Origin: Macrostomum lignano
Lineage: Eukaryota
DNA length: 64,000 nt
Assembly: GCA_002269645.1 (NCBI GenBank)
Contig: NIVC01003073.1
Span: 1-64,000 of the forward strand
Reading direction: 5' to 3'
Shown here: positions 1-58,857 of the stretch, piece by piece
Layout: each line of letters begins with the position of its first letter
Position numbering within the stretch: position 1 is the stretch's first letter
Program-made: the position numbers and the translations under genes
The notes under the pieces: model-generated
What the model was told of the DNA's origin: nothing
What the model saw: only the letters and a program-made list of their open reading frames with translations
Databases searched by the model: none

Positions 1-346
1 GCGTCGCCTTAAATAACGAGTAAAAAGGGGCAGGGGCGCAAACAAGGGGGGAGAAAGGGCTTAAACAATGGAGCTGATTGACAGCTGATTGGCTGCGGCG
101 AGGGGAGGGTGGAAGCGCGCACGGCCAGGGAGAGAGAGAGAGCAGAGGCCCAGCCAATCAGCACGGCTAGCCAAAGGCTAAACAGCCAAGGCGAGAGAGA
201 GAGAGAAAGAGAGCAGAGGCTCAGCCAAAGGGCTCATAGCTCCAGACTGGCTTGAGCCGGGGGGGGGGTAACAATAATCAACTACCAAAGTCAACAACTA
301 TCAAAGTGCACTTGCACCAGGGAGCACTGTGACACAGGTCACAACA
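1..346 (-). repeat. 3' LTR (partial, U3/R-proximal part)
   Basis: Matches 8039-8394. The differences I see are only G-run length changes. Ends with ...GGTCACAACA at 346. Confidence 0.95.
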
Positions 347-357
347 CCCTCCCCCCT
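347..357 (-). other. Polypurine tract (PPT)
   Basis: Minus strand reads AGGGGGGAGGG immediately before the TGTTGT start of the 3' LTR. Confidence 0.9.
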
Positions 358-447: not shown

Positions 448-990
448 GGCAGCGGCCGAGAGCGCAGGACAGGGGCCGAGGATGTCGGACAGGCCGAGAA
501 CACCGGGCACGGCCGAGAATGCCGCGACTGTGGCCGAAAACGCCGGGCATGGCGAGAATGGCCGCAGCGACGAGAACGGGCAGCGGCACGCGGCCGAGAA
601 TGCCGGAGCGGCCGAGAATGCCGGGCAGCGGACCTGAGAACGCCGGGCATGGCCGAAGAACGCCGGGCATGGCCGAGAGCCGGACAGCGGCCGAGAATGC
701 CGGACAGCGACCCGAGAATGCCGGCAGCGGCCGAGAACGCCGGCATGGCCGAGAATGCCGGACAGCGGCCGAGAATGCCGGGCAGCGGCCGAGAATGCCG
801 GGCATGGCCGAGAACGCCGGGCATGGCCGAGAGTGCCGGACAGCGGCCGAGAATGCGGCAGCGCGCCGAGAATGCCGGGCAGCGACGAGAACGCCGGGCA
901 TGGCCGAGAGTGCCGGACAGCGGCCGAGAATGCCGGGCAGCGGCCGAGAATGCGGGCAACGACGAGAGCGGCCGGGCATGGCCGAGAGTG
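448..990. repeat. GC-rich degenerate tandem repeat (~19-21 bp, GGCCGAGAATGCCGGGCAGC) in the element's 3' region
   Basis: The GCCGAGAATGCCG core recurs more than 20 times. Confidence 0.9.
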
Positions 991-1371
991 TTCCCCGCCC
1001 TTCCTTCGGGGCCGCTCCCAGTGCCAAACAGAGGGATCACAACGACGATCAGAGGAGAGATGGGATGAAATGAAGGAGTGAAGGTCTCTTGCCCGCCCTG
1101 GCATCCTGCCCAGAACCCCCTAGACCGCCACCTCCGCCGCCCGCGCAACAACCCCAACACGCGTCCTCCGTCGATTAGTTCAAACTGAGGGATCGCAACA
1201 CTCATGACGAACGAGTGCTTCGCTTGAAGGCAGGCCGCCGCCCAGACACGCCGAGCATGACCCCGACACTTGGCGCTGATGTCACGGAGAATGAACTTGA
1301 CAGTCTGAGCCAAAAGCTCGGCGATTTCGCGTCGATGATCCAGCCGCTCGCTGCCGCACAGTCCCACCATT

Positions 1372-2001
1372 TCAGTCAAAAAGCCGGAACATCGCAGCTG
1401 GACTCCCCGACAACAAAGCGTGCCGAAGCTCCGACCGGATTCGAGCTCTTCGCTGCGTTGCCTCCCCGCTCCAGGTGTATTCCACCTCGGTACTCGGCTC
1501 GCTCCTCATCAGCCACGCTGGCGACTCCCGTTGGTCGATGACGAGCTCCGGTTCGTCTTCTGACATCGAAGTTTCGCCGTCGAATTCATTCAAGAGCTCT
1601 TCTTCCTCTGACTGCGTGATTTCACAGCAGCTCTGAGCAGTCTCCTCGCCGCCGCAACCACCACGCTCGCTTCCTTCCGACTCCCTGTCCTCGTCTGACT
1701 CTTCTGTTTCGTCTTCAATCGTTACGACAAACTCCTCCGGGACGCACATCCCATCCGGCGGGACAAAATACCGGGCGCACTCGAGCGGGTTGCTAACGGC
1801 ATCCTGCCCGAACCGGTCGTACAGCGCTCGTCGAAACGGACACAGCAGGACCGCACTCGCATGCTGCAGCCTCTGGAAATTCTCCGTTCCACCGGGTCCA
1901 CACTTGTCGGGGTGCCGTCGCAGGCTCTCACGGCGGTACGCACGTCGCAGCTCCTCCTCCGTCGCGAAGGGGCTGACACCAAACTCGGCGTAGAGGTCCA
2001 T
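1372..2001 (-). CDS. DnaJ/Hsp40 J-domain protein (209 aa from ATG 2001) with acidic C-terminal region, in the env position of the Gypsy element
   Basis: Residues 1-65 MDLYAEFGVSPFATEEELRRAYRRESLRRHPDKCGPGGTENFQRLQHASAVLLCPFRRALYDRFG fit the J-domain consensus D.Y..LGV...A...EIKKAYR......HPDK.....F..I..A..VL.....R..YD..G. HPD is at 1914-1906. The ORF is uninterrupted and in the same sense as gag/pol. Confidence 0.9.
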   Translation of the reverse strand: MDLYAEFGVSPFATEEELRRAYRRESLRRHPDKCGPGGTENFQRLQHASAVLLCPFRRALYDRFGQDAVSNPLECARYFVPPDGMCVPEEFVVTIEDETEESDEDRESEGSERGGCGGEETAQSCCEITQSEEEELLNEFDGETSMSEDEPELVIDQRESPAWLMRSEPSTEVEYTWSGEATQRRARIRSELRHALLSGSPAAMFRLFD

Positions 2002-2210
2002 GCCCGGAAAGCAGTGCCTGCAACAACCACGACTCACTTTTGAGAGCAGGGCAATGGTTCCTTCGAGCCTCTTTGGGGCGCCGATCCTTCATCCCTGATG
2101 GCAGGGTTGGGCAGGTGGGACCTCCACTGACGGGCCTTAAGAGGGGAAATATATATTTTTGTTTGTGAAGCAGAGGCAATAACACGAGCCCAGTTTTCAA
2201 TAACGCGGGT

Positions 2211-2352
2211 GATGACGCAGACGATGCTTCGAACCAAATGTTGATGACGCAGGTGATGACGCGGATGATGCTTCGAACCAAATGTTGATGACGCAGGTGA
2301 TGACGCGGATGATGCTTCGAACCAAATGTTGATGACGCAGGTGATGACGCGA
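2211..2352. repeat. 44-bp direct repeats (~3 copies) between pol and the J-domain ORF
   Basis: Unit GATGCTTCGAACCAAATGTTGATGACGCAGGTGATGACGCGGAT; seven TGACGC motifs in total. Confidence 0.9.
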
Positions 2353-2377: not shown

Positions 2378-5300
2378 TTAATAATAAACGGGCGTTCCAT
2401 AACGCTGCGGAACCCTTCGATCCCTCTGGGGTCGACCTTCGATGACTTCAACTGGCGCTTCCGGCTGCGGCTGCACTCCTGGCTGCTGCACATCCATTGG
2501 TTCTCCCTCCTCTCGAACCCGCCCGGAATGTCGCCACCATCGCTCCTCATCCTCATCGTCCGATTCCTGCGAGTCCTCCCTGACGGATTCCGTCTCTTGA
2601 GCAGGACCTGGGTGGTACCTCCTTGGTGCAGGACGCCGAGGGCCACCGGTGCCGTCGACCGGGTACTTCCGGTACCGAGGCAGGAGGTTGTTAAAGTGCA
2701 CCACCTTGATCGGCTTCCGTCGACCTTCCTGTCGAATCCTATAGCGCGTCTCCGACAGCTTCTCGAGAACTACGGCAGGTCCGGTCCAGGGTGAGTGGAG
2801 CTTCGCTTTGGCACCGGCCTTCAACACGGGTTGTAGACGAACACCTCGTCGCCAGCCACGAATTCTCGACCCTTCACCTTCCGGTCGTACCAGTCTTTCT
2901 GCACTCGTTGATATGACGTTATTCTCTCACGCACCACCCGATGGGCTTCCACGAGCGTCTCCCGCAGGTTCTGGACTTCCTCGCAGTACGGTTCGATGTC
3001 CAGTGGGCGCGCCACTCCCAAGTCAACTGGCAGAGACATCTCGCGACCATGCAGAAGGAAGAAGGGTGAGTAGCCGGTGCCGCGGTGCACACTGGAGCGA
3101 TACGCCATGAGCGCCGGGGCAACGAATTCGTCCCACCGCCTCTGATCCGGCTCCTTCACCAGGTGCGCCCGGATCACTGCAGTCAGCGTCTTATTGAAGC
3201 TTTCCACTTGGCCGTTTCCAGAGGGGTGATAGGCGGTCGTACGCGTCTTTCGGATATTCAGACTTTCGCACAGCTGGCCGATCAATTGCGACTCGAAATT
3301 GGCTCCCTGATCCGAGTGGATTGTTCCTGGGGCTCCGTAGTGACAGACCCACTCCTCGAGCATTGCCCTTGCACAGGTGCTGGCCGTCTGATCTGGCACC
3401 GGTACTGCCACTGGCCACTTACTGAACGCGTCCTGCATCGTCAGTATGTATTTGTTGCCTCGGACGCTGGTTGGCAGTGGTCCAATCAAATCCACCATCA
3501 CTCTTTCAAACACATGGCTGCTGGGAATCGGCTCCAATGGGGCCTTCCGCCGCATCCCGGGCTTGCTCCGGTTACAGTCGTCACACCTTCGCACAAACTC
3601 CTCGACCTCTCGCTTCAAGCCGGGTCTCCAGAATCGGTTCCTGACTTTCTCCAGAGTCTTTGCTACGCCGAAGTGTCCACCTCCTGGTCCAGAGTGCAGC
3701 GTCTGCAGAGCGTCGGGGATCAATTTCTTCGGAGAACAGCCCGCGGTGGGTGACGTCCCAGATCCTTGATGACGAGGGTGTTGTCCACAATTTCCAGCCG
3801 AGGCTTTTGTGCCCAGATGGCTCGGGTCGTTGGTGACGCACCCCGAGGTGGCTCTTCGTTTGCTCGGCCGGCGTGCATCGACTGGTAAACTGGAGCGATG
3901 TCGTTGTCCACAGCTTGTGCTGCTGCCAGCTCATCTCGGCTGAGCAACCCGAGCAGCGTCGTTACCCTGACCCCGGGGAGGTCATCAGTCCGGCACGACG
4001 GGCAGTTATCCATTTCGGGATGTCGTCGCGGCGGCTTGCGTGACAGCGCGTCCGCATTCTGATGACGCGCCCCTGGCCGATGCTCCACTGCGAAGTCGAA
4101 TGGCGCCAACCTCTCCATCCACCGAGCCAACTGGCCTTCCGGCTGCCTCATACTTCGGAGCCACTGCAGACTTGCGTGGTCGGTGCGCACCCGGAACCTC
4201 CGGCCAAGTAGATAGTACCGGAACCTCTCTGCGAATGTCACCAGCGCCAGGAGCTCGATTCGTGTCGTGCAATAGTTGAATTCGGCCCCTTGCAGACGCC
4301 GACTCCCGTACGCAATAACCCGCTCTGACCCGTCTTCTTGTACCTGCGACAAGACTGCTCCGAGACCCTGTCGGGTACTTCCATCGGTATCCAAGATGAA
4401 CTCACCAGCCGTGGGGTCGAAGTTCGGGTAGGCCATCACGCGGCAACCGGTCAATTCTTCTTTCAGCTTTTTGAAGGCCTCATCGTGTTCCTCTCTCCAA
4501 CTGAACGGCTTGTCTTTCTTTGTCAGATCAAAAAGTGGTGCAGCGACTATCGAGAATTCTGGTATGAAGTTTCGGTAGTAACCAGCCAGACCCAGGAACG
4601 ACTGAAGGTCTTTTGCATTTCTTGGAATGCTCCAGTCACGGACTTCCTTGATCTTCTCCGGGTCGACATCGATTCCGTCCTTTGACACGACGTGGCCAAG
4701 GAATTTGACCTCATCGGCCAGGAATCTGCACTTAGATGGCTTTAGCCTCAAGTTGGCTGCGCGCAGGCGCTGGAATACCGCCTCGAGATTCGTTAGATGC
4801 TCGCTGACAGTTCGGGACCAAATGATGATATCGTCGATGTAGACGAGCGCCATTTTCCACAGAAGGTCGTGTAGTACCATATTCATCAACCTTGTGAATG
4901 TCGCCGGCGCATTGGTCAATCCGAAGGGCAGCACCTTGAACGCGAATTGCCCCCGATGCGGAATGACAAAAGCAGTCTTTTCTTGATCCTCCCTTTTGAC
5001 CTTAACTTGCCAATAGCCGGAGCAAAGGTCGAGCGTCGAAAATACAGCCGCACCTCCGAGCGCTTCAAGTGCGTCATCGACACGCGGGATTGCTATGGCG
5101 TCCTTGACAGTTCGTTGATTCAACTCTCTGTAGTCGACACACAGTCGCAGTTCCCCATTCTTCTTACGGACACAGACCACTGGCGAACTCCACGGCGATT
5201 GGGTCGGTTCAATCATCTTCGTTGCCAAAAGCTCGTCGATTTGTCGGTCGACTTCGCCGCGCCAATGTGGCGGTAGCCGTCGCGGAGGCTGTTTTACGGC

Positions 5301-6352
5301 TGTTCCGGTGGTCTCAATTTCATGCTGCACGATGTCCGTCGTCCCGAGGCGCGCTGTACTCTCTGCGAAAACATCTGCGTATCGATTCACCAATCTTAGG
5401 AAACTCGCTTTGTCTGCCCCCGTGAGCTGCTTGGAGCCGTGCTGGTTCAGTGCCGCCTCTGGGTCCCATGGATCGCAGCTGGGTCGTAAAACCGACGCTT
5501 GCTCTTCGATGCTGGCTACCAGAACCTCTTGAGCCGGATCTGATGGTCGAAACCAGCCGATGACAGCTCCCTTCCGCAGCCGCAGCTCGGAGTCCGTGAC
5601 ATTCGCGAAGTGAACTGGTAGGGTGTTGCCCTGCTGGATGAGGCAGACGCTCCTGGCTAGCATTGGTCTCTCATCGCTCTTCAGTTTTTCGTCTGGCTCG
5701 GCGACGCCGAGCACTCCGGAATTCTGTGTCGCTGTTCTCCGAATCCTGGCTGAGACGGTCCGTTCGTGATTGGCCGGAATGATCAAGTTTTCGTTCAGGT
5801 ACAACCGGCAGACGACTGGTTTGTGCTTGGTCTCTCGGATTGGCACACGTGAACCGTTCACGCGGAAAACTCCTCCGGCGAAATCGATTTGGCACCGGTG
5901 GCGGCGTAAGAAGTCGGTGCCTAGCAACAGTTCGTAGCCGACCCCTTGGACCACCGCAATTGGCGTCTGTAAAGTTTCTGATCCGAACTGTAGGGGAAGC
6001 GACGCGCATCCTAACACATTCATGGAGTTCCGTTCGCTGAGATCAGGTGGGTTTCCGAAGGGCTGAGTTCAACTCGAACCGACTTGCTCAACTGCCGCCA
6101 GGTCCTCTCGTTCACCAGCGACATGACCGAGCCCGAATCCAACAGACACGGCAACTCAATCTCGCCAATTTTTACCGACACGTAGATTGACACGGGATTA
6201 AAAGCTGTTGCAGGTTGATCTCTATCTCTTGAGCAGTCCGCCGGACATCCTGCTGCACGTCGCTCCGGGGCTGCATCTTCGTCTCGGGTTGGGGCCTCTA
6301 CTGTCTCGGCGGAACTCCCTCGCCCCTGCGGAAGTTCCCCTTGCCGTTTCCC
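2378..6352 (-). CDS. pol: pol (protease, reverse transcriptase, RNase H, integrase); split in this sequence by three 1-bp frameshifts
   Basis: PR LLDSGSVMSLV (~6140). RT LCVDYRELN, FSTLDLCSGYWQ, LPFGLTNAPATF, YIDD. RH FILDTDGS...ELLAL...RTDH. IN H-H-C-C finger (HSGPGGGH...CDDC), D-D-E core (MVDLIGP, HSDQG, GQVESFN), GPY/F-like KLHSPWTGP and C-terminal RxRRxPxRY. Frames rejoin with one added base at ~6024, ~3731 and ~2828. Confidence 0.93.
6291..6352 (-). other. -1 programmed ribosomal frameshift signal (G GGA AAC plus downstream pseudoknot)
   Basis: Slippery heptamer GGGAAAC (6352-6346) lies in the correct phase in gag, and the -1 frame stays open into the protease. After a 7-nt spacer there is a 9-bp stem GGAACUUCC/GGGAGUUCC whose loop GGGGC can pair with downstream GCCCC. 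Confidence 0.8.
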
Positions 6353-7278
6353 TGTTGCTGACGGGTTGGGCAGTTAGTCGCGATGTGCCCTGGCTTGTTG
6401 CAGAAGAAGCAGCGAATTCCTCCCGTTCGTCGAGGCTTCTGATGGTCGCCTTCGTCGGAGTCGGTCGGTCGAGCTGCGGCGCTGCTATGCGGTTCCGCTC
6501 TCAGCGACTCGAGCTGAACCACTTTGCCTTGAAGCTGCCTCACCAGTTTCTTCAACTCCTCGAGCTCTTTGTCCTTTTCTTGGGAGTAGGCTCCATCCTC
6601 CCGAGGCACAGATTCCGCCGCGCCGCTCACCACGAAGACTCCTCGGTAGCCGCTGCCAGTTGCTCCAGCCGATCTCGGTCCCTTCGCCGCCTTGGACGCC
6701 GCCTCGAGCTGCCTCACCGCGCGTTGTGCTGCCACCAGACCTTCGGGCTGCTGCAGGTAGAGCTTCTCTCGCTGGAGGTCGGAGAGTCTCACCCCTTGCA
6801 TGAAGCGATCCTTCGCGAGGTCGTCCTGCAGCTCGGCAGTTGCCGCCGGGTAGGCACAGCGCACCAGTTCAAGGAGAGCATCTGCGTAGGCCTCCAACGA
6901 CTCGCCATCCTTCTGATCTCGGGTTTTTAGCTCGACCTTGCTGTCCTGCTCTGTCCGGTACCGGGAGAAGCGAGCCTCCAACCGGGCGGTGAATCCCTCG
7001 TAGTCCAGCGGATCCACAGGATCGTCGGGTCCCGGCAGGTTCAGATTATCGACCGCAGCGTACGCCGTAGCGAGATCCAGCATGCTCATCAAGTGCTCGC
7101 GGCGATGCTCCTCGTCAATCTCGGCGGAGTCGCAATAAGCGTTGAAAGAGCGCAGCCAGAGTCGAAAATTCATGCTTGACGTGTACTTCACGGGCTTCGG
7201 GAGTCTCGGTGGCTGGGCTGGTCCATCCGCTCGCAGACGCTCGGCTAGCAGCCGAATCAGTTCGTCCACATTCGCCAT
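6298..7278 (-). CDS. gag: Gag (capsid-like domain plus CCHC zinc knuckle), 326 aa
   Basis: ATG lies 25 nt after the PBS. Contains QKDGESLEAYADALLEL (major-homology-like) and knuckle CFFCNKPGHIATNC. Confidence 0.93.
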   Translation of the reverse strand: MANVDELIRLLAERLRADGPAQPPRLPKPVKYTSSMNFRLWLRSFNAYCDSAEIDEEHRREHLMSMLDLATAYAAVDNLNLPGPDDPVDPLDYEGFTARLEARFSRYRTEQDSKVELKTRDQKDGESLEAYADALLELVRCAYPAATAELQDDLAKDRFMQGVRLSDLQREKLYLQQPEGLVAAQRAVRQLEAASKAAKGPRSAGATGSGYRGVFVVSGAAESVPREDGAYSQEKDKELEELKKLVRQLQGKVVQLESLRAEPHSSAAARPTDSDEGDHQKPRRTGGIRCFFCNKPGHIATNCPTRQQQGNGKGNFRRGEGVPPRQ

Positions 7279-7302: not shown

Positions 7303-7320
7303 GTCCCTGTTCGGGCGCCA
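7303..7320 (-). other. Primer binding site complementary to the tRNA-Lys(UUU) 3' end
   Basis: Minus strand reads TGGCGCCCGAACAGGGAC, 1 nt inside the 5' LTR end. This is the known tRNA-Lys3 PBS 18-mer. Confidence 0.92.
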
Positions 7321-7488
7321 ATGTTGTATCCCCCTTCCTCGCTGGCACGGCCGGGTTGGGTGACGGGTAGCGGTGTCGGGGTTCGGGTACTGGACTGCCC
7401 AGGGCTTACGAGCTCGATCGGCGACCCCGAGGCGTACGGACACTTCGGGGGAGGTCAAGGTTGAGAAGTCGAGAGAGAGGGGAGGGGC

Positions 7489-7792
7489 GGCTGTGGGCGG
7501 GCGGCCACTCGACAGCCTGGTGAGTCAAGGAAGAGAGAGAGGGCTGCGGGCGGTCGGCCACTCGACAGCCTGGTGAGTCAAGGAAAAGAGAGAGGGCTGT
7601 GGGCGGGCGGCCACTCGACAGCCTGGTGAGTCAAGGAAGAGAGAGAGGGCTGCGGGCGGTCGGCCACTCGACAGCCTGGTGAGTCAAGGAAAAGAGAGAG
7701 GGCTGTGGGCGGGCGGCCACTCGACAGCCTGGTGAGTCAAGGAAGAGAGAGAGGGCTGCGGGCGGTCGGCCACTCGACAGCCTGGTGAGTCA
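7489..7792. repeat. 53-bp tandem repeat x~6 inside the LTR, alternating A/B variants, each with TGAGTCA
   Basis: CCACTC starts at 7505, 7558, 7611, 7664, 7717, 7770. TGAGTCA at 7521, 7574, 7627, 7680, 7733, 7786. Confidence 0.92.
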
Positions 7793-7977
7793 GACTGAGG
7801 AGAGAGTGAGAGAGAGAGAGATCAGGAGAGCGACCCCGAGGAACACAGGCAATTGTCTCGACAGCTTACCGGGCCGGGTCGATTATAGCACTCATACACG
7901 GGAAGGCCGATCGATTGCAATAAATTGAGTCTTCGCAGTAAGAGACCGTCTTTACGGCTGATCGCTGGTCACGTTCG

Positions 7978-8200
7978 TTTATTTATCGCGGTGGGCGCAA
8001 ATGGGCGCAGGCACGGTGAGAAAAGGGGCGGGGTCTGAGCGTCGCCTTAAATAACGAGTAAAAAGGGGCAGGGGCGCAAACAAGGGGGGGGGAGAAAGGG
8101 CTTAAACAATGGAGCTGATTGACAGCTGATTGGCTGCGGCGAGGGAGGGTGGAAGCGCGCACGGCCAGGGAGAGGGAGAGAGAGCAGAGGCCCAGCCAAT
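7978..8200 (-). promoter_or_regulatory. LTR promoter and poly(A) signals: TATTTAA (8053-8047), CCAAT boxes, AATAAA (7983-7978)
   Basis: On the minus strand the order is CCAAT boxes, TATA-like box, then AATAAA, as expected for U3-R-U5. Confidence 0.55.
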
Positions 8201-8656
8201 CAGCACGGCTAGCCAAAGGGCTAAACAGCCAAGGCGAGAGAGAGAGAGAAAGAGAGCAGAGGCTCAGCCAAAGGGCTCATAGCTCCAGACTGGCTTGAGC
8301 CGGGGGGGGGGGGGGTAACAATAATCAACTACCAAAGTCAACAACTATCAAAGTGCACTTGCACCAGGGGAGCACTGTGACACAGGTCACAACACATGTA
8401 CAGTGGGAATTGGGTGATTTAGTTTTGTGTGCAGGGGACAGGAAACTCAGTCAGACCACGGACTGTATGAAAACTGATTGAGTATCTCGGGACAAAGAAG
8501 CAACAGAAAAAGACCGAGCGTCAACTATTCAATCATCATTTCTCTCTTTTCAAGCTGCTTCAAAAATGAAAAATCGAACGTGTAAAAACATAACTTGTTT
8601 CCGCACAAGACACCCACTAGCTCCATCTAAAAATGTGTTGAAATTCATGTTTCAGG

Positions 8657-8954
8657 CGAATATCTGGAAAGCGGATTAATCTAGAGACACGATTCTTTCT
8701 GCGGGTGATACCGACTGGCACACTCTAATGATGTGTAGAGTCCCAAAAGTGAGGCTACTGATACAGCTTGGCAATTCCTGATTGATTTTCCCGGATTTGC
8801 CCATTTGAATGCATTAGAATTTTCCCGAATCGCCGCCTTCGAATATCTAGAAAGCGGATTAATCTAGAGACACGATTCTTTCTGCGGGTGATACCGACTG
8901 GCACACTCTAATGATGTGTAGAATCCCAAAGCTGAGGCTACTGATACAGCTTGG
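8657..8954. repeat. 115-bp direct repeat, 2 copies (8657-8771, 8840-8954)
   Basis: CGAATATCT...ATACAGCTTGG is duplicated with few substitutions, period 183. Confidence 0.9.
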
Positions 8955-37630: not shown

Positions 37631-40600
37631 TCAGAAGTAAATGTCCTGCACCTGCGAGGTCTCCATCTCCATCGGGCAGTACGGGCACTTGAACCTGCGG
37701 GGCGGACTGCGGGTTGTAGCTTTAAAAATCCCACACAACACAATTCTCAAATCCCACACAACAAAAATCCCTAGATCCCACACAACACGATTCCAAAATC
37801 CCACACAACACGATTCCAAAATCCCACACAACAAAATCCCCAAATCCCACTCAACAAAATCCCCCCAATCCCACACAGCAAAATCCCCCAAATCCCACAC
37901 AACAAAACCCCTAATCCCACACAACCAAATCTTCAAATCCCACACAACAAAAATCCTTAAATCCCACACAAGCAAATCTTCAAATCCCACACAACAAAAA
38001 TCCCTAACTCTCACACAGCACAATCCCCAAATCCCACATAGCTAAATACCCAAATCCCACACAACTAAATCCCAAAATCCCACACAACTAAGTCCCCAAA
38101 TCCCACACAACAAAATCCCCAAATCCAACACAACTAAATCCCTAAATCCCACACAGCAAAATCCCCAAATCCCACACAACTAAATCCCAAAATCCCACAC
38201 AACAAAAATCCCTAAATCCCACACACACAATCCCCAAATCCCACACACCACAATCCCCAAATCCCACACAACAAAAATCCCTAACTCACACAGCACAATC
38301 CCCAAATCCCACATAGCTAAATACCCAAATCCCACACAACTAAATCCCAAAATCCCACACAACTAAATCCCCAAATCCCACACAACAAAATCCCCAAATC
38401 CAACACAACTAAATCCCTAAATCCCACACAGCAAAATCCCCAAATCCCACACAACTAAATCCCAAAATCCCACACAACAAAATCCCTAAATCCCACACAC
38501 CGCAATCCCCAAATCCCACACAACTAAATCCCAAAATCCCACACAACTAAATCCCCAAATCCCACACAACAAAATCCCCAAATCCAACACAACTAAATCC
38601 CTAAATCCCACACAGCAAAATCCCCAAATCCCACACAACTAAATCCCAAAATCCCACACAACAAAATCCCTAAATCCCACACACCGCAATCCCCAAATCC
38701 CACACAACAAAAATCCCCGAATCCCACACAACTAAATCCCCAAATCCCACACAACAAAAAAACCCTAAATCCCACACAGCAAAATACCCAAATCCCACAC
38801 ACCAAAATCCCTAAATCCCACACACCAAAATCCCCAAATCCCACACAGCACAATCCCCAAATCCCACACAACAAAAATCTCCAAATCCCACACACCAAAA
38901 TCCCCAAATCCCCAAATCCCACACACAAAAATCCCCAAATCCCACACACCAAAATCCTCAAATCCCACACAGCACAATCCCCAAATCCCACATACCAAAA
39001 TCCCTAAATCCCACACAGCACAATCCCCAAATCCCACACAGCAAAATCTCCAAACCCCACGCACTTAGATGACGCATTCGCCAGCTTGGCAACGGCATCC
39101 CTGGAGATGGCGTGGCCGCAGACCAGCCGCACAGGCGGGTTGGCATCGGAGGTCTGGGCCCGCAGGATCGGGCAGGCGAAGACGCTGTGAAAGCGCAGCT
39201 CGTCGCCCAAGTCGATGTCGATTGGCAGCTCGCCGGTGATGGCGGCGCCGAGGTTCCGCTGGTTCATCACCGTCTGGATGTTCAGCAGAGGCGGCAGGGC
39301 GGCGCAGCCGGCGTTGATGGCCACGGAGAGTGGCAGGTCCTTGGCGAAGCCCAGCATCTTGTTGGCCTCGGACACCAGCAGCTGGGACAGCTCGTGGTAC
39401 AGGCGGGACTCGAACAGGTCCTGCGGTTTGGGGATTCGAGCTCTGGGACTGTGGTTTGGGGATTCGAACTCTGGGACTGTGGTTTGGGGATTCGAACTCT
39501 GGGACTGTGGCTTGGGGATTCGAACTCTGGGAATGTGGTTTGGGGATTCGAACTCTGGGAATGTGGCTTGGGGATTCGAACTCTGGGACTGTGGCTTGGG
39601 GATTCGAACTCTGGGACTGTGGTTTGGGGATTCGAACTCTGGGACTGTGGTTTGGGGATTCGAACTCTGGGACTGTGGTTTGGGGATTCGAACTCTGGGA
39701 CTGTGGTTTGGGGATTCGAACTCTGGGACTGTGGTTTGGGGATTCGAATTCGTATTAGGGAATCGAGCTCTTAGAATTAGGATTTAAAATCTTAGATTTT
39801 TTAAGTTTCAGGCTTATCTGCCTGGGATCCGAAATCGTACACCTGGGATTTGAACTCTTACCCCTGGGATCCGAAATCGCATACGTGAAATTTTCAATCA
39901 TAGGATTCCAACTCCTGGGACTAGATAGTTGAATCCCAGGACCAATGAATGACGGGAGCCATCAAGCCCCCCCCCTAAGCCGACCCCAGCGCCAACCTTG
40001 TACGGCGAGCTGTGCAGGCTACGCCGCACGAAGGCCAGCGAGCCCATCAGGCGACGAATGTCGGCATCGCAGGCTGGCGAGAAGGCGGCCAGCAGGCGGG
40101 CCTGCTGCAGGATGGCCTCCGGCTTGGCGTCCTCGCTGGACACGAGCTGCACCAGCTGCAGGCGCCTGATGAGGAACTCCAGGTAGCGGCCAGTCTCCTC
40201 GCTGCTGAGTGACTTCTGGTTGTCCTGCAGCCACTGCAGCGCCGGCTCCAGCTGCCGCTTGGCCAGGGCCTCCACCACGTGGTTAAGCTCGGCGTAGGCG
40301 GGCAGGTGCGACTCCTCATAAGCCAGGCCAGCCTCCCTGATCAGCTCCTGCGCCACCTCCATGGAGCCCTCCCGGATCAGGTGCTCGCAGATGGCAGTGT
40401 TGAGCACCTGGGGCGGGGATTAGTCATTCACAACTTTTTAGATAATCCGTCATGTTCAGCTCAGAGATAATCCGTCATGCTTAACTCAGAGATAATCCGC
40501 TGCTTAACTCAGAGATAATCCATCTTAACTCAGAGATAATCTCTCAACTCAGCCATAATCCGTCATACTCAGCTCAGAGATAATCCATCAAACAGCTGAC

Positions 40601-49900: not shown

Positions 49901-52900
49901 GTCACATGGATCAGCATAGCAGTGTCACACAGATCAGCATAGCAGTGTCACATAGATCAGCATAGCAGTGTCACATGGATCAGCATAGCAGTGTCACATG
50001 GATCAGCATAGCAGTGTCACATGGATCAGCATAGCAGTGTCACATGGATCAGCATAGCAGTGTCACACAGATCAGCATAGCAGTGTCACATGGATCAGCA
50101 TAGCAGTGTCACAGGGATCAGCATAGCAGTGTCACATGGATCAGCATAGCAGTGTCACATGGATCAGCATAGCAGTGTCACATGGATCAGCATAGCAGTG
50201 TCACACTAAGTCGGTGGCTAAAACCGCTCAATGAGAATCACCTTAACTGCATAAGCTGTAAAATCTATCAATCAAAAGGCGCCACCCCTTCACCTGCTGC
50301 AGACCTGCAGCTCGCAGCGCAGGCACAACCTACTGGCGCATCAGCGCGGCTCCCAGCTGTACTTTCGCTGCACCCAGTCTGTGCCGGCTGGCGAGGAGCT
50401 GCGCTTCGCGTTGAACCGCTGGATGGCCCGGCTGGCGCGGAGTGGCTTCTGCCGGAGTGGAGTGGCTGGTGGATGCGTTGCCAGGGCAGAGGCTGGGCGG
50501 CAGGCATCGGTGGCTGCTCTGACAGCTGTCAGGGCGCAGAGGCTGCTGGCGATGGCTCGGAGTCGGCTGTCTGAGGTGGCTTTCGGAGAGCAGCTGGCTC
50601 GGTCTGCAGCTTGTAGCGGTGAAATGGTGAGTGAGACGGCAGTTGATGCCTGCTCACTGTGGGGCGGTGGCTTTCACAAGTGAGGCTGTAAATGTTGATC
50701 AAGCACATTCAGAGTGAGCTTAAATTTACTCATTTCAAAAATTCTAATCATTTTATTCACACATCTATTGTCATTCACACATGGTGTGTGATTCATACAA
50801 ATTCTCATTCTTAGTCGTAAAACTTTCCTTTTGTCATTCACACATTCCAGAGCTTCACAAGAATAACATTACGCACCGCATTTCCCAATTGTTTTGAGAA
50901 GAATTTCGGTCTTGTGAAAGCGGCCCACTTATTTACTCACTCACTCATTCACTCACTTACTTCCTCACTCACTCACTCACTCATTCTCTCTCTCACTCAC
51001 TCACTCACTCACTCACTCACTCACTTACTCACTCACTCATTCATTCACTCACTCACTCACTCATTCATTCACTCACTCACTCACTCACTCACTCACTCAC
51101 TTGCTTACTCGCTCACTCATTTACTCACTCACTCACTTACTCACTCACTCATTCACTCACTCACTCACTCACTCACTCACTTGCTTACTCGCTCACTCAT
51201 TTACTCACTCACTCACTTACTCACTCACTCACTCACTTACTCACTCACTCACTCACTCTCGCTCACTCACTCACTCACTCACTCTCGCTCACCATCAGCG
51301 CCAGAGCACTGCTGCAGCCATCGGCCGGGTGTCCACCGCCACTCTCGACCAGCTGAAGGTCCGGCTGTGCCAGCGCCGACCCGCCGCTGTGCAGGACGCC
51401 GCGGCCGCCACCGCCTCAGATTCGGAGCCGCGGCAGCTGCAGGCAGGTGAAGGCGCCGCTCAATCCGGTCAAAGCGAGCTCGTCAGCTCCGACATCAGTG
51501 GCACCGGTAAGGGCGGCCGCGGCAGCGCCAGCATCAGCTCAATTCGTCGCCGGCTGCAGCGCCGCCGGACTCGCCTTCAGCCGGCGGAGTTCTGCAGGAG
51601 GCTGCAGGCAGCGCTGGCCTCAGCCGGCTTGGAGTTCGGCTGTCGCCGCTGCGGCCTGGTGATGCCGCATCCCGCTCTGGCCGGCTTGCACTCGCGCGGC
51701 TGCGTCAAAGTCGATGTGCAGCTGGATGACGTGGCCAGCGTCCAGGTTGATGCAGCTGCCGGCTTTGCCGACTCCCTGAGACATGGCGGCCGAGTTGACT
51801 GTCCGGTCTGCTGCGCCGTGCTCCAGGTGAGCTGCCGCTGAATCCTGCTTGATGTCTGATTAGCACCTGCATGATGGGATCTCTGATTAGGGATTAACAC
51901 CTGCATGATGGGATCTCTGATTAGGGATTAACACCTGTATGATGGGATTTTCTGATTAGGGATTAACACCTGCATGATGGGATCTCTGATTAGGGATTAA
52001 CACCTGCATGATGGGATCTCCGATTAGGGATTAACACCTGCATGATGGGATCTCTGATTAGGGATTAACACCTGTATGATGGGATTTTCTGATTAGGGAT
52101 TAACACCTGCATGATGGGATCTCTGATTAGGGATTAACACCTGCATGATGGGATCTCTGATTAGGGATTAACACCTGCATGATGGGATCTCTGATTAGGG
52201 ATTAACACCTGCATGATGGGATCTCTGATTAGGGATTAACACCTGTATGATGGGATCTCTGATTAAGGGATTAACACCTGCATGATGGGAGCAGTACTCT
52301 AGGCGTAGAAAAGTATACAAAAAGCGACATTTACATGCAAAAAGTACATTATGCGCTTTGCTACAGGGCGGCGCCCGCCAGCTGGCCCAGCACGTGGACG
52401 CGGCCCACTCGCTGCCGGAGCCGCGCATCGCCGGCCTGTCAGCCGCCTGCGACTTCGGCTGCTCAGCCTGCGGCTTGGCCTTCCCCGGACAGCCCGAGCT
52501 GCTGCGCCACGCGGCCGAGGCGCACGGCGTCCGCATGGACCCGGCAGGGCCCGTGTTCGACTCCTGCCCGCTGTGCAGCTTTGGCGACAGGTGAGGGAGA
52601 GTTGAATCAGTCTACTGGATAAACAATGCTGCGTGAGCTTCATGTAGCCGATGTAGCCGATATGTATCGAAATTAAGTTATCTTCAGGACGTAGCCGATA
52701 TGTATCGAAAGTGTAGTTTTTAAGGTAGCCGATATGTATTGAAAGCATGCTTTTCAGGCATTTGATATGTATCAAAATTAAGTTATTTTCAAGTAGCCGA
52801 TATGTATCGAAAGTAATTTATTTCAGGTAGCCGATATGTATCGAAAGTAATTTATTTCAGGTAGCCGATATGTATCGAAAGTATGTATTTAACCCGCAGC

Positions 52901-54952
52901 CCCAGTGCCGGCTGCCTCCGCAACCATCTGAAGTCGCACTGCCAGGGCCTCGGACAGCCGGTCTGCCAGCTCTGCGGCCACTGCAGTCGCAGCCGCCGAC
53001 AGCTGGCCCGGCACTACGAGGCCGCCCACCGGGACCCTGCGCTCGGCGACTTTCCCTGCCGCGTCTGCCACCGCCGGGCCGCCACCCTCGCCCAGGCCAA
53101 GCGGCACCAGCGCAACTGCCACAGCGGCGGCGGCACCGACAGCTCCGGCATCAGTCAGCAGCTGAAGCCGCCCCAGCAGTTTGCCTGCGACCACTGCGGT
53201 CGGAGGTTCGCCAAGCGGTCTCGCCTGCGCGACCATCTGGCCGCCTCCAGCGTTTGCCGCAGCGGCGTTGGCAGCTCAGCCGGCAACCTGCCGGTCAGCC
53301 AGCAGCCAGTCTGCCAGGGCTGCGGCCGCAGGTTCTCGCGCAGAGACAAACTCGCCGCTCACCTCAGGCTGGGCCGTTGCAAGGGCAGCAAAGGCGTCGG
53401 CGACCTCCCCGGACGGCCCAAGAAGCCGAGATGCGTGCCGCAGGTGCCCTCCACCGATTTTGAACGGTTTATTTACAAATGCCGCGACTGCAGTCTGGGC
53501 TTCAAGCGGCGTGGGGTGCTGGTCAATCATATGGTTTGTAGTTCAATATATGATGTTCCTGTTTGTATTGGTATTCTCTTTGAGTCTATTGCTGTACGTC
53601 TGGATCTTAGCGCCACAAACTCAGTCAGCACTTTGACCGCAGCACATTGGCATCAAAACCTTGACGTACCCTACACCTTGACGTACCCTACACCTTGACG
53701 TACCCTACACCTTGACCCCTACACCTTGACCCCTACACCTTGACCCCTACACCTAGACCCCTACACCTTGACCCCTACACCTTGACATCAACACCTTGAC
53801 CCCTACACCTTGACCCTACACCTTGACCCCTACACCTTGACCCCTACACCTTGACCCCTACACCTTGATCCCTACACCTTGACCCCTACACCTTGACCCC
53901 TACACCTTGACATCAACACCTTGACCCCTACACCTTGACCCCTACACCTTGACCCCTACACCTTGACCCCTACACCTTGACCCTACACCTTGACCCCTAC
54001 ACCTTGACCCCTACACCTTGACCCCTACACCTTGACATCAACACCTTGACCCTTGACCTCGGCACCTTGATCACTTGATCCCTATCAGGTCCGCGTGCAC
54101 CCGGAAATCCCGCTGAGCAGCTTGAGCGAGCTGAACCTGCCGCTGCTGCAGCAGGTGCGCAGCCGGCCCAACAACCTGCCCTGCCCGCTGTGCGGCAGCC
54201 TCTTCCGCTCCGACCAGCAGCGCCAGGCGCACCTGCAGCGGGTGCACGGGGTCGCCAGCCCGCCCGACCTGCACCTGCCGCCGCCACGCAGCGTCGCCTC
54301 AATGGTTGCTGCCTCGCTGGTCCCGGACTCGAATCCCGCATCTGGCTCCTCAGCATCCTCATCCGCGCCCATCATGGTGGTCTCAACGGCGCCATCCGTG
54401 ATCAGCATGGCGCACTGCTGCCCGCACTGTCCGCGCCAGTACGCCAAGAAGGAGAAGCTCACCTGGCACATGCGCCAGGCCCATCCCGCTCTGGCGCCGC
54501 CAACCCGCGCCCAAATCCGCGCCGCCATCGCCAGCGGCCTGCCGCACCCGCAGCTTCAGCAGCCGCAGCAGCAGCAGCAGCAGCAGATCTGCCAGTTCAG
54601 CGAGGACTCAGAGGATCTGCTCACCCAGGCATTGCGAGAGCTCACTGGAAACGGAGCCGGGGTTGACCTGCCAGCTGAGCAGCAGCAGCAGCAGGAGGCT
54701 CCCAATGTCCAGTTCCTGCTGGTCAACTCTGCCAGCGTGCCTGTGCTGTTCAACTCCGCCGTCACCGCCGGCGCCTCCACGGCCTCTCTGGAGGATGACG
54801 CGTCCGCCATCGTGGACGAGCTGACGGCCAGGGCAGCCGCTGGCGAGTCGGCCGGTTGCCACCAGCCCGCCACCGATGAAACCGACTGGCTCGAGGGCGC
54901 CATACGGGAGGCCGGCAGCGACCAACCTGCCACTGCCGGCCCACGGTGCTGA
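46999..54952 (+). CDS. PRDM10: PR/SET-domain zinc-finger protein, PRDM10-like (5' end uncertain)
   Basis: Exons ~46999-47310, 50303-50626, 51299-51826, 52367-52590, 52900-53533, 54089-54952, all GT-AG and phase-consistent. PR domain LGLFARKPVPRGAVLGPLEAP...NWLVFLQP...HNLLAHQRGSQLYF...EELRF. About 11 C2H2/C2HC fingers. CRDCSLGFKRRGVLVNHMVRVHPEIPL..ELNLP and CCPHCPRQY match PRDM10 as I recall it. Confidence 0.88.
47320..50205. repeat. 23-bp minisatellite (CAGTGTCACATGGATCAGCATAG), ~125 copies, inside the PR-domain intron
   Basis: Direct inspection; period 23. Confidence 0.97.
50930..51290. repeat. (CACT)n microsatellite, intronic
   Basis: Direct inspection. Confidence 0.95.
51865..52290. repeat. 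34-bp minisatellite (ACACCTGCATGATGGGATCTCTGATTAGGGATTA), intronic
   Basis: Direct inspection. Confidence 0.95.
52640..52885. repeat. Degenerate ~34-bp repeat (GTAGCCGATATGTATCGAAA core), intronic
   Basis: Direct inspection. Confidence 0.85.
53660..54060. repeat. 14-bp repeat (ACCTTGACCCCTAC), intronic
   Basis: Direct inspection. Confidence 0.95.
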
Positions 54953-57324: not shown

Positions 57325-58857
57325 ATGTCGCAGTCGCACCGACCCACGCTATCGGAGGAGCAGCGCCTGGGAAGCTGCCACCAGGCCACGGTGCTGTGGC
57401 CTGAGGACAGCGCGAGCCCCGAGGCCTGGCTGGCTGCCCAGCCAGTCGAGGAGCTCAAGGCCCAGTTCGACAACGATGGCTACGCGGTTGTCCGCGGCGT
57501 TCTGACGCCCTCGGAGGTGGCGCTGCTCGGCGAGCTGTACGACCGGCTGCTGAACGGCAGCATCGACGCCAGCAGCCACCGGCACGACTTGGGGAACACG
57601 CAGACTGTGCAGAATGCCAAGTTCAAGGAGAACATCTGCCAGATCATGTGGCCCAGCCTGTTCGTGCATGTGCGGCGTGGGATTTGATATATTTTAGTCT
57701 GGGGTATTTTAGTCAGATATTTTAGTTTTGGGATATTTTAGTCTGGGGTATTTTAGTCTGGGGCAGTTTAGTCTGGGGTATTTCAGTCTGGGGTATTTCA
57801 GTTTTGGGATATTTTAGTCTGGGGTATTTTAGTCTGGGGCATTTTAGTCTGGGGTATTTCAGTCTGGGGTATTTCAGTTTTGGGATATTTTAGTCTGGGG
57901 TTTTTTAGTCTGGGGTATTTTAGTTGTGATATTTTGTCTGGGGTAATTTAGTCTGAGGTATTTGGATCTGGGATATTTTAGTCTGGGGTATTTTATTCTG
58001 AGATATTTTAGTTTTGGGATATTTTAGTCTAGGCTATATTTTTGTTTAGGGTATTTTAGTCTAGGGCATTTTAGTCTGGGGTATGTATTTTAGCCTGGGG
58101 TATTTTAGTTTGGGATTTTAAAGATTTAGCATAATTTAGTCTGGGCTATTTTATTCTGAGGTATTCGGGTCTTGTGTCTTCAATAGACAATCTCTGGCAT
58201 ACCTTTGCATCGCACAGGTTTCTCATCCATCAAGCAGATTTTATGAGCATTCACGAGTCGCATTGTAAACGCGCGCAAATTCTCTCTCTGGCGTAGGGCC
58301 TCGCGGACCCCTGCCCTGCTCGCCAGCGCCTGCGCCTGCTGGCCCGGGCGCTGCTCGGCCCCGACATGGACTTCGACTTCGACATGATGCTGGCCAAGCC
58401 GCCGCAGTCAAACACGCCCACGCCCTGGCACGCTGACGCCGCCTACTGGCTGGACATGCCAGATAAGAGGGCCGTGTCCTGCTGGCTGGCTGTGGATGCC
58501 ACCTGGCTGGACAACGGCTGCATGTGGTTCGGCCCCGGCTCTCACCGCCGGCCTCTGCTGCCGCACCGCTCCGCCGCTGCGGGCACCCACGTGCTCACCT
58601 GCGACGGCTCCGAGGCCGACGGGGTGCCGTGCGAGCTGCAGCCGGGCGACTGCACCCTGCACTCGGGCCAGACCCTGCACTACAGCCGGGGGAACACCTC
58701 CGACTGCTGGCGCCGCGGCTACGTGATGAACTTCCGGCCGCTGGCCATGGTGGAGTTTGAGCGCCAGAGAAACTATGACCACGGCCAGGCTGGGCTCGGC
58801 AAGATCTTCGGCGCCGGCCAGGCCCATGCGGCTGACGGAGCCGACGCTGTGGCCTGA
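57325..58857 (+). CDS. Phytanoyl-CoA dioxygenase (PhyH)-family Fe(II)/2-oxoglutarate dioxygenase, 2 exons, ~301 aa
   Basis: Exons 57325-57669 (donor could be 57663) and 58297-58857, phase 0. Shows QFDNDGYAVVRGVL, TPWHADAAYW (HxD), WLAVD...NGCM..PGSH, LHYSRGN (distal His) and RRGY (2OG Arg). AATAAA at 59368. Confidence 0.92.
57690..58160. repeat. 15-bp repeat (GGGGTATTTTAGTCT) filling the PhyH intron
   Basis: Direct inspection. Confidence 0.92.

Follow-up and report, generated by a model that had tools for sequence, protein, structure and literature searches.

The retrotransposon at the start of the window

The window, the whole 64,000-nucleotide stretch of Macrostomum lignano DNA that we analyzed, begins with an LTR retrotransposon on the minus strand. 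Its 5′ LTR (7322..8394, 1073 bp) has TG...CA ends and its 3′ LTR (1..346) is incomplete, being cut by the contig start; a sister copy, L031, has both LTRs. Over 358 shared columns, the two LTRs of the window copy show no mismatches and 12 gap columns. Between them, also on the minus strand, lie a primer-binding site (7303..7320) complementary to the 3′ end of host tRNA-Lys(TTT), gag (6298..7278), pol (2378..6500), a third open reading frame that we call ORF3 (1120..2001), and a polypurine tract (347..357). The primer-binding sequence has eight genomic matches with a T-loop in front, and the two that we examined were both identified as tRNA-Lys(ttt) by ARAGORN. Gag is a 326-aa protein with a zinc knuckle that matches PF00098 at 24 bits and PF03732 and PF14893 weakly. 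Pol, whose upper coordinate was transferred from a sister copy, is ordered PR-RT-RH-IN, with the integrase stop at 2378, and is broken in the window near 6023, 3730, and 2827. Pfam detects zf-CCHC, RVT_1, RNase H, integrase zinc finger, rve, and Integrase_p58_C domains in the window element; the protease was found in a sister copy, where pol likewise has the order PR-RT-RH-IN.

Several parts of the element are tandemly repeated. The 5′ LTR contains a 53-bp array (7489-7792) with six AP-1-type TGA(C/G)TCA sites, compared with five in the rest of the 64-kb window. Two such sites occur in the LTR of lineage D (see below), and the plus-strand letters of the array resemble splice donors. It is possible that this array confers wound- or stress-responsive control in a regenerating animal. 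The spacer between integrase and ORF3, which differs in length between copies, contains a 44-bp tandem repeat (2203..2351), and a GC-rich array with a 20-bp unit (450..990) separates ORF3 from the purine tract. Family-specific GC-rich arrays also lie between ORF3 and the 3′ LTR in lineages C (L032:1820-2316) and A′ (L096:1162-1640). Between gag and the protease region, lineage C carries a 30-bp array of 26 copies that is open in several frames (L032:7744-8531).

With TG...CA LTRs, a primer-binding site, a polypurine tract, and gag followed by PR-RT-RH-IN, the element has the organization of Ty3/Gypsy elements (Metaviridae), and the combination of a tRNA-Lys primer-binding site with a 1-kb LTR suggests the Osvaldo cluster. 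Passages of PMC3286476 give Osvaldo-like elements LTRs of 997-2055 bp and an invariant tRNA-Lys primer-binding site, and passages of PMC12801592 report 40 Gmr1/Osvaldo families in M. lignano. The element is probably an Osvaldo-like Gypsy LTR retrotransposon, sharing with the Osvaldo/Gmr1 cluster the order PR-RT-RH-IN, an LTR of ~1 kb, and the tRNA-Lys primer-binding site. It differs in that its third ORF encodes a soluble J-domain protein rather than an envelope, whereas Osvaldo itself has an env-like ORF3; moreover, lineage D carries a different primer-binding site.

The sequence flanking the 5′ LTR was found at three other places, with the same insertion on C3956 and without it on C1450 and C2447. 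Since the flank is empty on these two contigs and the LTRs are nearly identical, the insertion is recent. Pieces of the flank (8657-8700 and 8840-8883) match a 183-bp satellite that forms long arrays on many contigs. As part of PMC12801592 describes the M. lignano assembly as redundant, the numbers of places given below overstate independent insertions. Elsewhere, the window carries sequence that is ordinary for the host: a CTLH/CRA domain exon (39901-40419), C2H2 zinc-finger exons (52865-54949), a PhyH dioxygenase exon (58297-58854), and a DDE_Tnp_1_7 transposase remnant (62504-63564). It also has a 23-bp minisatellite of more than 120 copies (47177 to ~50300), and simple repeats make up much of 12-40 kb.

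ORF3 encodes a J-domain joined to a basic C-terminal domain

A sequence-only reading of the window had described an intact 209-aa ORF with a J-domain and an acidic tail. The minus-strand frame, from an ATG at 2001 to a stop at 1372, exists and was correctly placed: it runs in the same direction as gag and pol and falls inside the two LTRs, with the integrase stop (2378) on one side and the purine tract (347-357) on the other. However, it is not intact, as the 209 residues end at a frame break near 1378 and sister copies encode 293 aa. Single-base indels interrupt ORF3 in the window copy near 1378, 1241, 1211, and 1142. In contigs from each of four public runs, the sequence departs from that of the window at every one of these breaks and also at the pol breaks, and the same insertion on C3956 (L015) reads through ORF3. 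By this comparison, the breaks are likely, though not proven, to be assembly errors in this contig. The stretch itself is present in sequencing runs of seven studies.

Searching the genome, we obtained 128 matches among 150 scored of 212 candidates. Family A, to which the window element belongs, occupies 22 places at ≥91% identity, 14 of which have an open frame of 322 codons (a 293-aa protein when counted from the ATG position). Both the ATG and the HPD motif are retained in 12 of these 14 copies; one lost the ATG and one the HPD. At all family A loci examined (L001-L023), integrase lies directly upstream of ORF3.

Residues 2-62 of ORF3 (1816..1998, HPD at 1906-1914) cover the whole PF00226 model (E = 6.9e-13, 48.9 bits against a cut-off of 27.8), confirming the four-helix J-domain. 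Its best solved relative is human DNAJB1 (E = 1.2e-13), and its Foldseek matches are J proteins. A lineage-conserved extension follows (residues 63-96, 1714..1815), then an acidic linker (1477..1713) that is 37% D+E, predicted to be disordered, and poorly conserved, and finally a conserved, basic C-terminal domain (CTD; 1120..1476, pI 11.6) that is interrupted in the window copy. AlphaFold2, run with a 13-row alignment, predicts a confident J-domain plus extension (residues 1-90, pLDDT above 89), a disordered linker (100-172), and five helices (179-289). What had been read as an acidic tail is instead a linker ahead of a conserved, confidently folded domain.

Folded alone, the CTD, which holds a conserved Gly/Arg loop, gave a pLDDT of 91.6 and a pTM of 0.84. 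Foldseek found no match to it in PDB or BFVD at E 0.001 or better. The best structural match (Z 8.3, rmsd 2.8, 83 aligned) falls within the range of generic helical bundles, and B12-cap-like helical matches (Z 7-8) were set aside as generic. Nothing meaningful was found in Pfam, PHROGs, or PDB sequences, and by these comparisons the CTD belongs to no known family.

The ORF3 proteins scanned contain neither PF01556 nor PF00684 and are thus without the canonical class A/B Hsp40 domains; having no G/F region, zinc finger, or DnaJ_C, ORF3 is class C-like. We found no transmembrane stretch or signal peptide in six lineages, where 19-residue hydropathy maxima were 1.0-1.5 and N-termini reached at most 0.5. 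With hydropathy this low, ORF3 lacks the signal peptide and anchor of an errantivirus-type env.

ORF3 is present in at least seven lineages of elements

At least seven lineages of elements in the genome carry the same ORF3 after integrase. Lineages A′, B, C, D, E, F, and G were resolved from the weaker matches. Between lineages, ORF3 is 19-37% identical (234 kept columns), and the integrases of the other lineages are ~49-56% identical to that of family A. We examined 31 ORF3 places outside family A: integrase was directly upstream at 23 and RT/RNase H at one, and no pol was seen in the flanks of seven. By comparison, nine J loci of host type were available with flanks, and integrase adjoined none of them. 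One frame of 1449 codons (L056:1226-5572), which has no introns, starts with a J-domain that is its sole Pfam match and is present at five places, two of them on one contig. With no integrase nearby, L056 and L061 were treated as host genes rather than element cargo; L056 may be a host gene or another mobile element. Lineages C and D occupy 23 and 21 places, each at identical J scores; a few of each were examined, and the rest agree by coordinates where listed. Of the 150 genomic J-domain matches that were scored, C and D alone contribute more than 40.

An HPD with a basic helix before it is found in A, B, C, D, E, F, and the public protein P0005, and HPD is kept in six lineages whose ORF3s share only 23-37% identity. 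P0005 has the same layout, but its identity to the sequences scored in the genome reaches at most 45%, or 50% when the J region alone is compared; since it is so diverged, a further ORF3 lineage must exist somewhere. Another database protein, P0016, agrees with the lineage C ORF3 at all 313 of 313 residues, and named records such as this one identify the host as M. lignano. In lineage G (L084, L085, L093), ORF3 has J-like helices without HPD (18.3 bits, below the PF00226 cut-off), followed by the CTD and a TatD-like domain. Lineage G has 20 places at ≥95% identity, 10 of them with an open frame of 571-575 codons, and is a natural control for Hsp70 dependence. Because ORF3 has been retained in G after the loss of HPD, selection on the protein must act on more than Hsp70 recruitment.

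Three lineages carry additional domains. In lineage D, a chromodomain (PF00385, 47.7 bits) is inserted in the ORF3 linker. It lies within ORF3 (L033:6161-7141, L060:449-1144) and not at the integrase end. Its best solved matches are Swi6 and HP1 proteins; at what we take to be the HP1 cage positions, the aromatic cage is complete in L060, while L033, the main D copy, has two of three residues, with Val at the third position. In lineages B and G, a TatD-like domain follows the CTD (PF01026, 32-35 bits in B and 23 in G). The GE motif of this domain aligns with TatD but the following His does not, and the remaining metal-ligand positions appear, on our assignment, to be replaced. Judged by these residues, the domain looks degenerate and inactive. 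Every lineage B copy examined was broken.

Some elements lack the gene. Lineage H (L088, L090, L092), the sister of G in the integrase tree (99/99), has no ORF3 at any of three loci. Unrelated open frames of 141-207 codons follow its integrase, and the two that were scanned have no Pfam match. A′ and B2 include deletion derivatives without J. Since H persists without ORF3 and these derivatives without J, ORF3 is not needed in cis for persistence. Two more distant integrases (41-43% identical) have no ORF3 of this type, and two further loci are interrupted by other insertions. A more distant integrase with a long C-terminal extension was also observed (L095:2-2638); Pfam sees only integrase in its 879-codon frame.

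Selection and history of ORF3

We calculated dN/dS (Nei-Gojobori) from pairwise codon alignments in 20 comparisons, dropping windows that looked out of frame. Values were 0.09-0.17 for J plus extension (five comparisons), 0.08-0.29 for the CTD (six comparisons), 0.34 for chromodomain plus CTD, and 0.14 for the TatD-like domain. Across five lineage pairs, dN/dS of ORF3 was 0.08-0.34 with bootstrap upper bounds of at most 0.46; at dS of 0.8-2.5, some pairs are near saturation and the values are rough. These ratios, well below 1, show purifying selection. Integrase controls were lower where measurable (0.08) and saturated in two cases. In the young E/E′ pair, dN/dS was 0.25 for ORF3 and 0.30 for integrase. 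The C-terminus of integrase gave an anomalous 1.68 at dS 0.05 between C and C′, probably reflecting frameshift noise and recombination. Among family A copies, which have 0-4 differences each, dN/dS is uninformative.

ORF3 and pol differ in divergence. Between C and C′, dS is 1.0-1.2 for ORF3 versus 0.05 for part of pol, and between D and D′ it is 0.84 versus 0.14. The pol parts of L053 and L060 are nearly identical to those of C and D, and their ORF3s are far more diverged. Such patterns suggest that recombination exchanges ORF3 between subfamilies, with L053 and L060 likely recombinants.

Two points of the sequence-only reading concerned the origin of the gene. The composition of ORF3 does resemble that of the element (GC3 0.69, versus 0.70 for gag and 0.64 for pol in a sister copy), but this carries no evidential weight, since three host DNAJ genes span 0.59-0.89. 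A phylogeny against host DNAJ genes supported the clustering of element J-domains and resolved no host donor: in a tree of 76 columns, the element J-domains cluster with two changes (0 of 500 shuffles were as low), yet only 48% of bootstrap trees recover a single origin, and a weak lean toward genes that are presumably DNAJC21-like is without support. The best identity of an element J-domain to the 28 host J-domains sampled was 0.38-0.46 (the host set is partial, with 150 of 336 candidates scored), so that ORF3 is not a near-identical copy of a host DNAJ. Lineages B and G group together both in the integrase tree (100/98, with H) and in the ORF3 tree (100/99); deeper branches of the lineage trees lack resolution. 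The shared extension, CTD, and position, together with the B and G group in both trees, support a single old capture.

That sister copies should keep the ORF had been set beforehand as a test, and 22 family A places and six other lineages do so. The claim at the core of the earlier reading, an element-encoded J-domain gene in the env position, stands. We conclude with near certainty that a Gypsy clade, probably Osvaldo-like, has long carried ORF3 as an accessory gene under selection. As far as the sequence comparisons indicate, the gene is ancestral and selected, yet elements can do without it in cis, and its HPD can be lost.

An acceptor-like signal precedes ORF3

A splice-acceptor-like TTGCAG (2018..2023, minus strand) lies 16 nt before the ORF3 ATG. 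In all seven lineages, a YAG is found 0-16 nt before the start of ORF3, and it abuts the ATG in C, D, and E. All four TTGCAG motifs within the 1920 nt of seven spacers lie in the last 25 nt; a simple position argument, computed after the motif was noticed, gives ~7e-5 for this clustering. The start of J has no ATG in A′ and B, consistent with a start codon that comes from an exon further upstream. Contigs of four runs cover the element without a splice joint; as none is on record as RNA, they have no bearing on splicing or transcription. These motifs point to a spliced subgenomic RNA as the probable template for ORF3, as it is for env genes in the same position.

Relatives outside M. lignano and precedents in other elements

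We found no named record of the ORF3 layout from another species. The 209-aa window protein had no relative outside M. lignano among 210 candidates; the representative-set search used this truncated query, which lacks most of the CTD. A CTD profile recovered two proteins among 7999 scored, P0156 and P0157, both from M. lignano, and a full ORF3 profile recovered one M. lignano protein among 8000, the other matches being to the J-domain only. Scans of metagenome and viral contigs revealed no ORF3 relative, and the ESM Atlas gave nothing usable for ORF3 (best 0.79). As evidence for absence, these are weak blanks.

No J-domain ORF in an LTR retrotransposon is described in the literature searched (Repbase, Dfam, GyDB, and the 2020 M. 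lignano LTR classification lie outside this scope), in line with the suspicion that the architecture had not been catalogued. DnaJ is unmentioned in the available parts of PMC3248453, PMC6431247, and bioRxiv 10.1101/2023.10.26.564294. In PMC12801592, the main text contains no DnaJ, Hsp40, or ORF, and DnaJ appears in the supplements only in an expression table. We consider it quite likely that a J-domain accessory ORF3 has so far gone undescribed.

To our knowledge, fixed extra genes are rare in LTR retrotransposons, and those described are envelopes or enzymes. Like ORF3, the third ORFs of certain bdelloid and orchid elements are captured host-type domains kept between pol and the 3′ LTR: excerpts of PMC5408684 report a DEDDy exonuclease and a GDSL esterase in bdelloids, and excerpts of PMC9289625 report AlkB in orchids. 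The exonuclease has a parallel in the TatD-like fusions of B and G; what sets ORF3 apart is that its cargo is a co-chaperone module with a domain of no known family. As reported in the same excerpts of PMC5408684, the rotifer cargo shows no clear departure from neutrality within the genome, in contrast to the strong selection on ORF3 between lineages. The M. lignano LTR families with heat-shock elements described in passages of PMC12801592 share its host and also tap the heat-shock system. These families use cis elements in the LTR, unlike our element, where an HSE-type triplet is absent from the window LTR at up to one mismatch.

ORF3 also resembles class C J proteins and those of viruses (polyomavirus T antigens, giant viruses, and baculoviruses), in which an N-terminal J-domain with HPD is joined to a dedicated domain and there is no G/F region, zinc finger, or DnaJ_C. 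It differs from the viral proteins in being encoded by a retrotransposon, in having no helicase, and in having a CTD that matches nothing. As to other well-known T-antigen features, an LxCxE motif was not seen by eye in ORF3 of A, C, or D.

Discussion

Proteins with a J-domain bring Hsp70 to whatever is bound by the domain attached to it. Motif and predicted fold make it quite likely that the HPD stimulates host Hsc70/Hsp70 in the lineages that bear it. We propose that ORF3 would be a J-domain adaptor whose basic CTD, on a flexible acidic linker, grips a target. This target may be nuclear, either the silenced chromatin of the element itself or a repressive complex on it, which Hsc70 would prise apart, making ORF3 an anti-silencing factor or transactivator. 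We rank anti-silencing or transactivation through a nuclear target first, but hold it tentatively. A chromatin or nucleic-acid target is favored since the CTD is basic and the modules added to it are a heterochromatin-type reader and an inactive-looking nuclease fold; these fused domains point to chromatin or nucleic acid more than to Gag folding. Polyomavirus T antigen disrupts Rb-E2F through its J-domain. According to PMC10396365, Arabidopsis DNAJ1/2, recruited by SUVH1/3, counteract silencing, and PMC8616336 provides a precedent in SILENZIO and the transposon-encoded suppressor VANC21. With DNAJ1/2, our proposal shares a J-domain that reaches chromatin through a reader domain, and with VANC21 a transposon-encoded counter-silencer beside tandem arrays. 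For all three, the likeness is offered as an analogy, and the present host is an animal. The GC-rich arrays 3′ of ORF3 in A, C, and A′ are candidate binding sites for the CTD. Against a nuclear role, the chromodomain occurs in one lineage only and the window family has neither chromodomain nor TatD; a basic domain suits RNA or particle binding equally; and lineage G lacks HPD and lineage H lacks ORF3. More doubtful is a bolder form of this proposal, in which ORF3 would be a modular counter-silencing machine, a new fold with swappable readers (an HP1-type chromodomain, a dead TatD) directing Hsc70 to heterochromatin on the element itself, from which repressors would be stripped, and its bearers the first known retrotransposon lineage with its own Hsp70 co-chaperone.

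The same parts could serve a particle. Auxilin acts for clathrin much as a CTD bound to the Gag lattice, element RNA, or reverse-transcription complex might, with the J-domain calling Hsc70 to assemble or uncoat. The env-like position and acceptor motif, the solubility of the protein, a basic CTD that could bind RNA, and the frequency of J-domain genes in giant viruses and phages all agree with such an adaptor. We nonetheless find it somewhat unlikely, as it is hard to see what the HP1-type chromodomain of lineage D would do in a cytoplasmic particle, and an ORF3 apparently exchanged independently of pol would be an awkward partner for Gag/Pol. That chromodomain could instead have been relocated from integrase, were ORF3 a tether bridging the pre-integration complex to chromatin for integration or nuclear import. 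A CTD that is a helical bundle and the acidic integrase tails of these elements fit a tether, yet the chromodomain is confined to one lineage and no integrase-binding fold stood out in the top 50 structural matches of the CTD, leaving this role improbable.

We give a similarly low chance to a small-RNA decoy, in which the J-domain would divert Hsc70 from Argonaute/Piwi loading or piRNA biogenesis and lower transposon silencing generally. Two reports fit this reading: in Drosophila, piRNA chaperone complexes are displaced by Hsp70, which also activates transposons (bioRxiv 10.1101/423210), and the Hsp40 Mas5 is required for RNAi heterochromatin (PMC5985592). A decoy leaves unexplained both the equally conserved CTD and lineage G, which kept the CTD and lost HPD. 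Loss of HPD in so successful a lineage, with a CTD as conserved as J in some pairs, would be expected if the CTD did the essential work and the J-domain served only as an appendage, structural or autoregulatory, without Hsp70; that HPD is kept in six lineages at 23-37% ORF3 identity makes this very unlikely. Finally, the broken window copy could be taken to mean that a host DNAJ mRNA was captured once and has since drifted neutrally, or that the gene is an artefact of assembly. Given 22 family A places and six other lineages, strong purifying selection, at most 46% identity to the host J-domains sampled, and presence in the runs of seven studies, we regard this as having almost no chance of being correct.

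Since element J-domains are among the genome matches, and fragments of these elements have entered databases under the name "J domain-containing protein" (P0002, P0016), counts of M. lignano DNAJ genes may be inflated. More broadly, a putative chaperone-recruiting adaptor has been kept across at least seven deep lineages, and its CTD is an uncharacterized domain that is predicted to fold with confidence. If ORF3 does counter silencing, it would be an animal counterpart of the plant VANC anti-silencers, working on T-antigen logic. The natural variants, with HPD lost, a chromodomain gained, a TatD-like domain gained, or the gene absent, form a comparative series, and RNAi and transgenesis are feasible in M. 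lignano. Whether animal retrotransposon proteins counter host silencing with Hsp70 as the lever is thereby a testable question.
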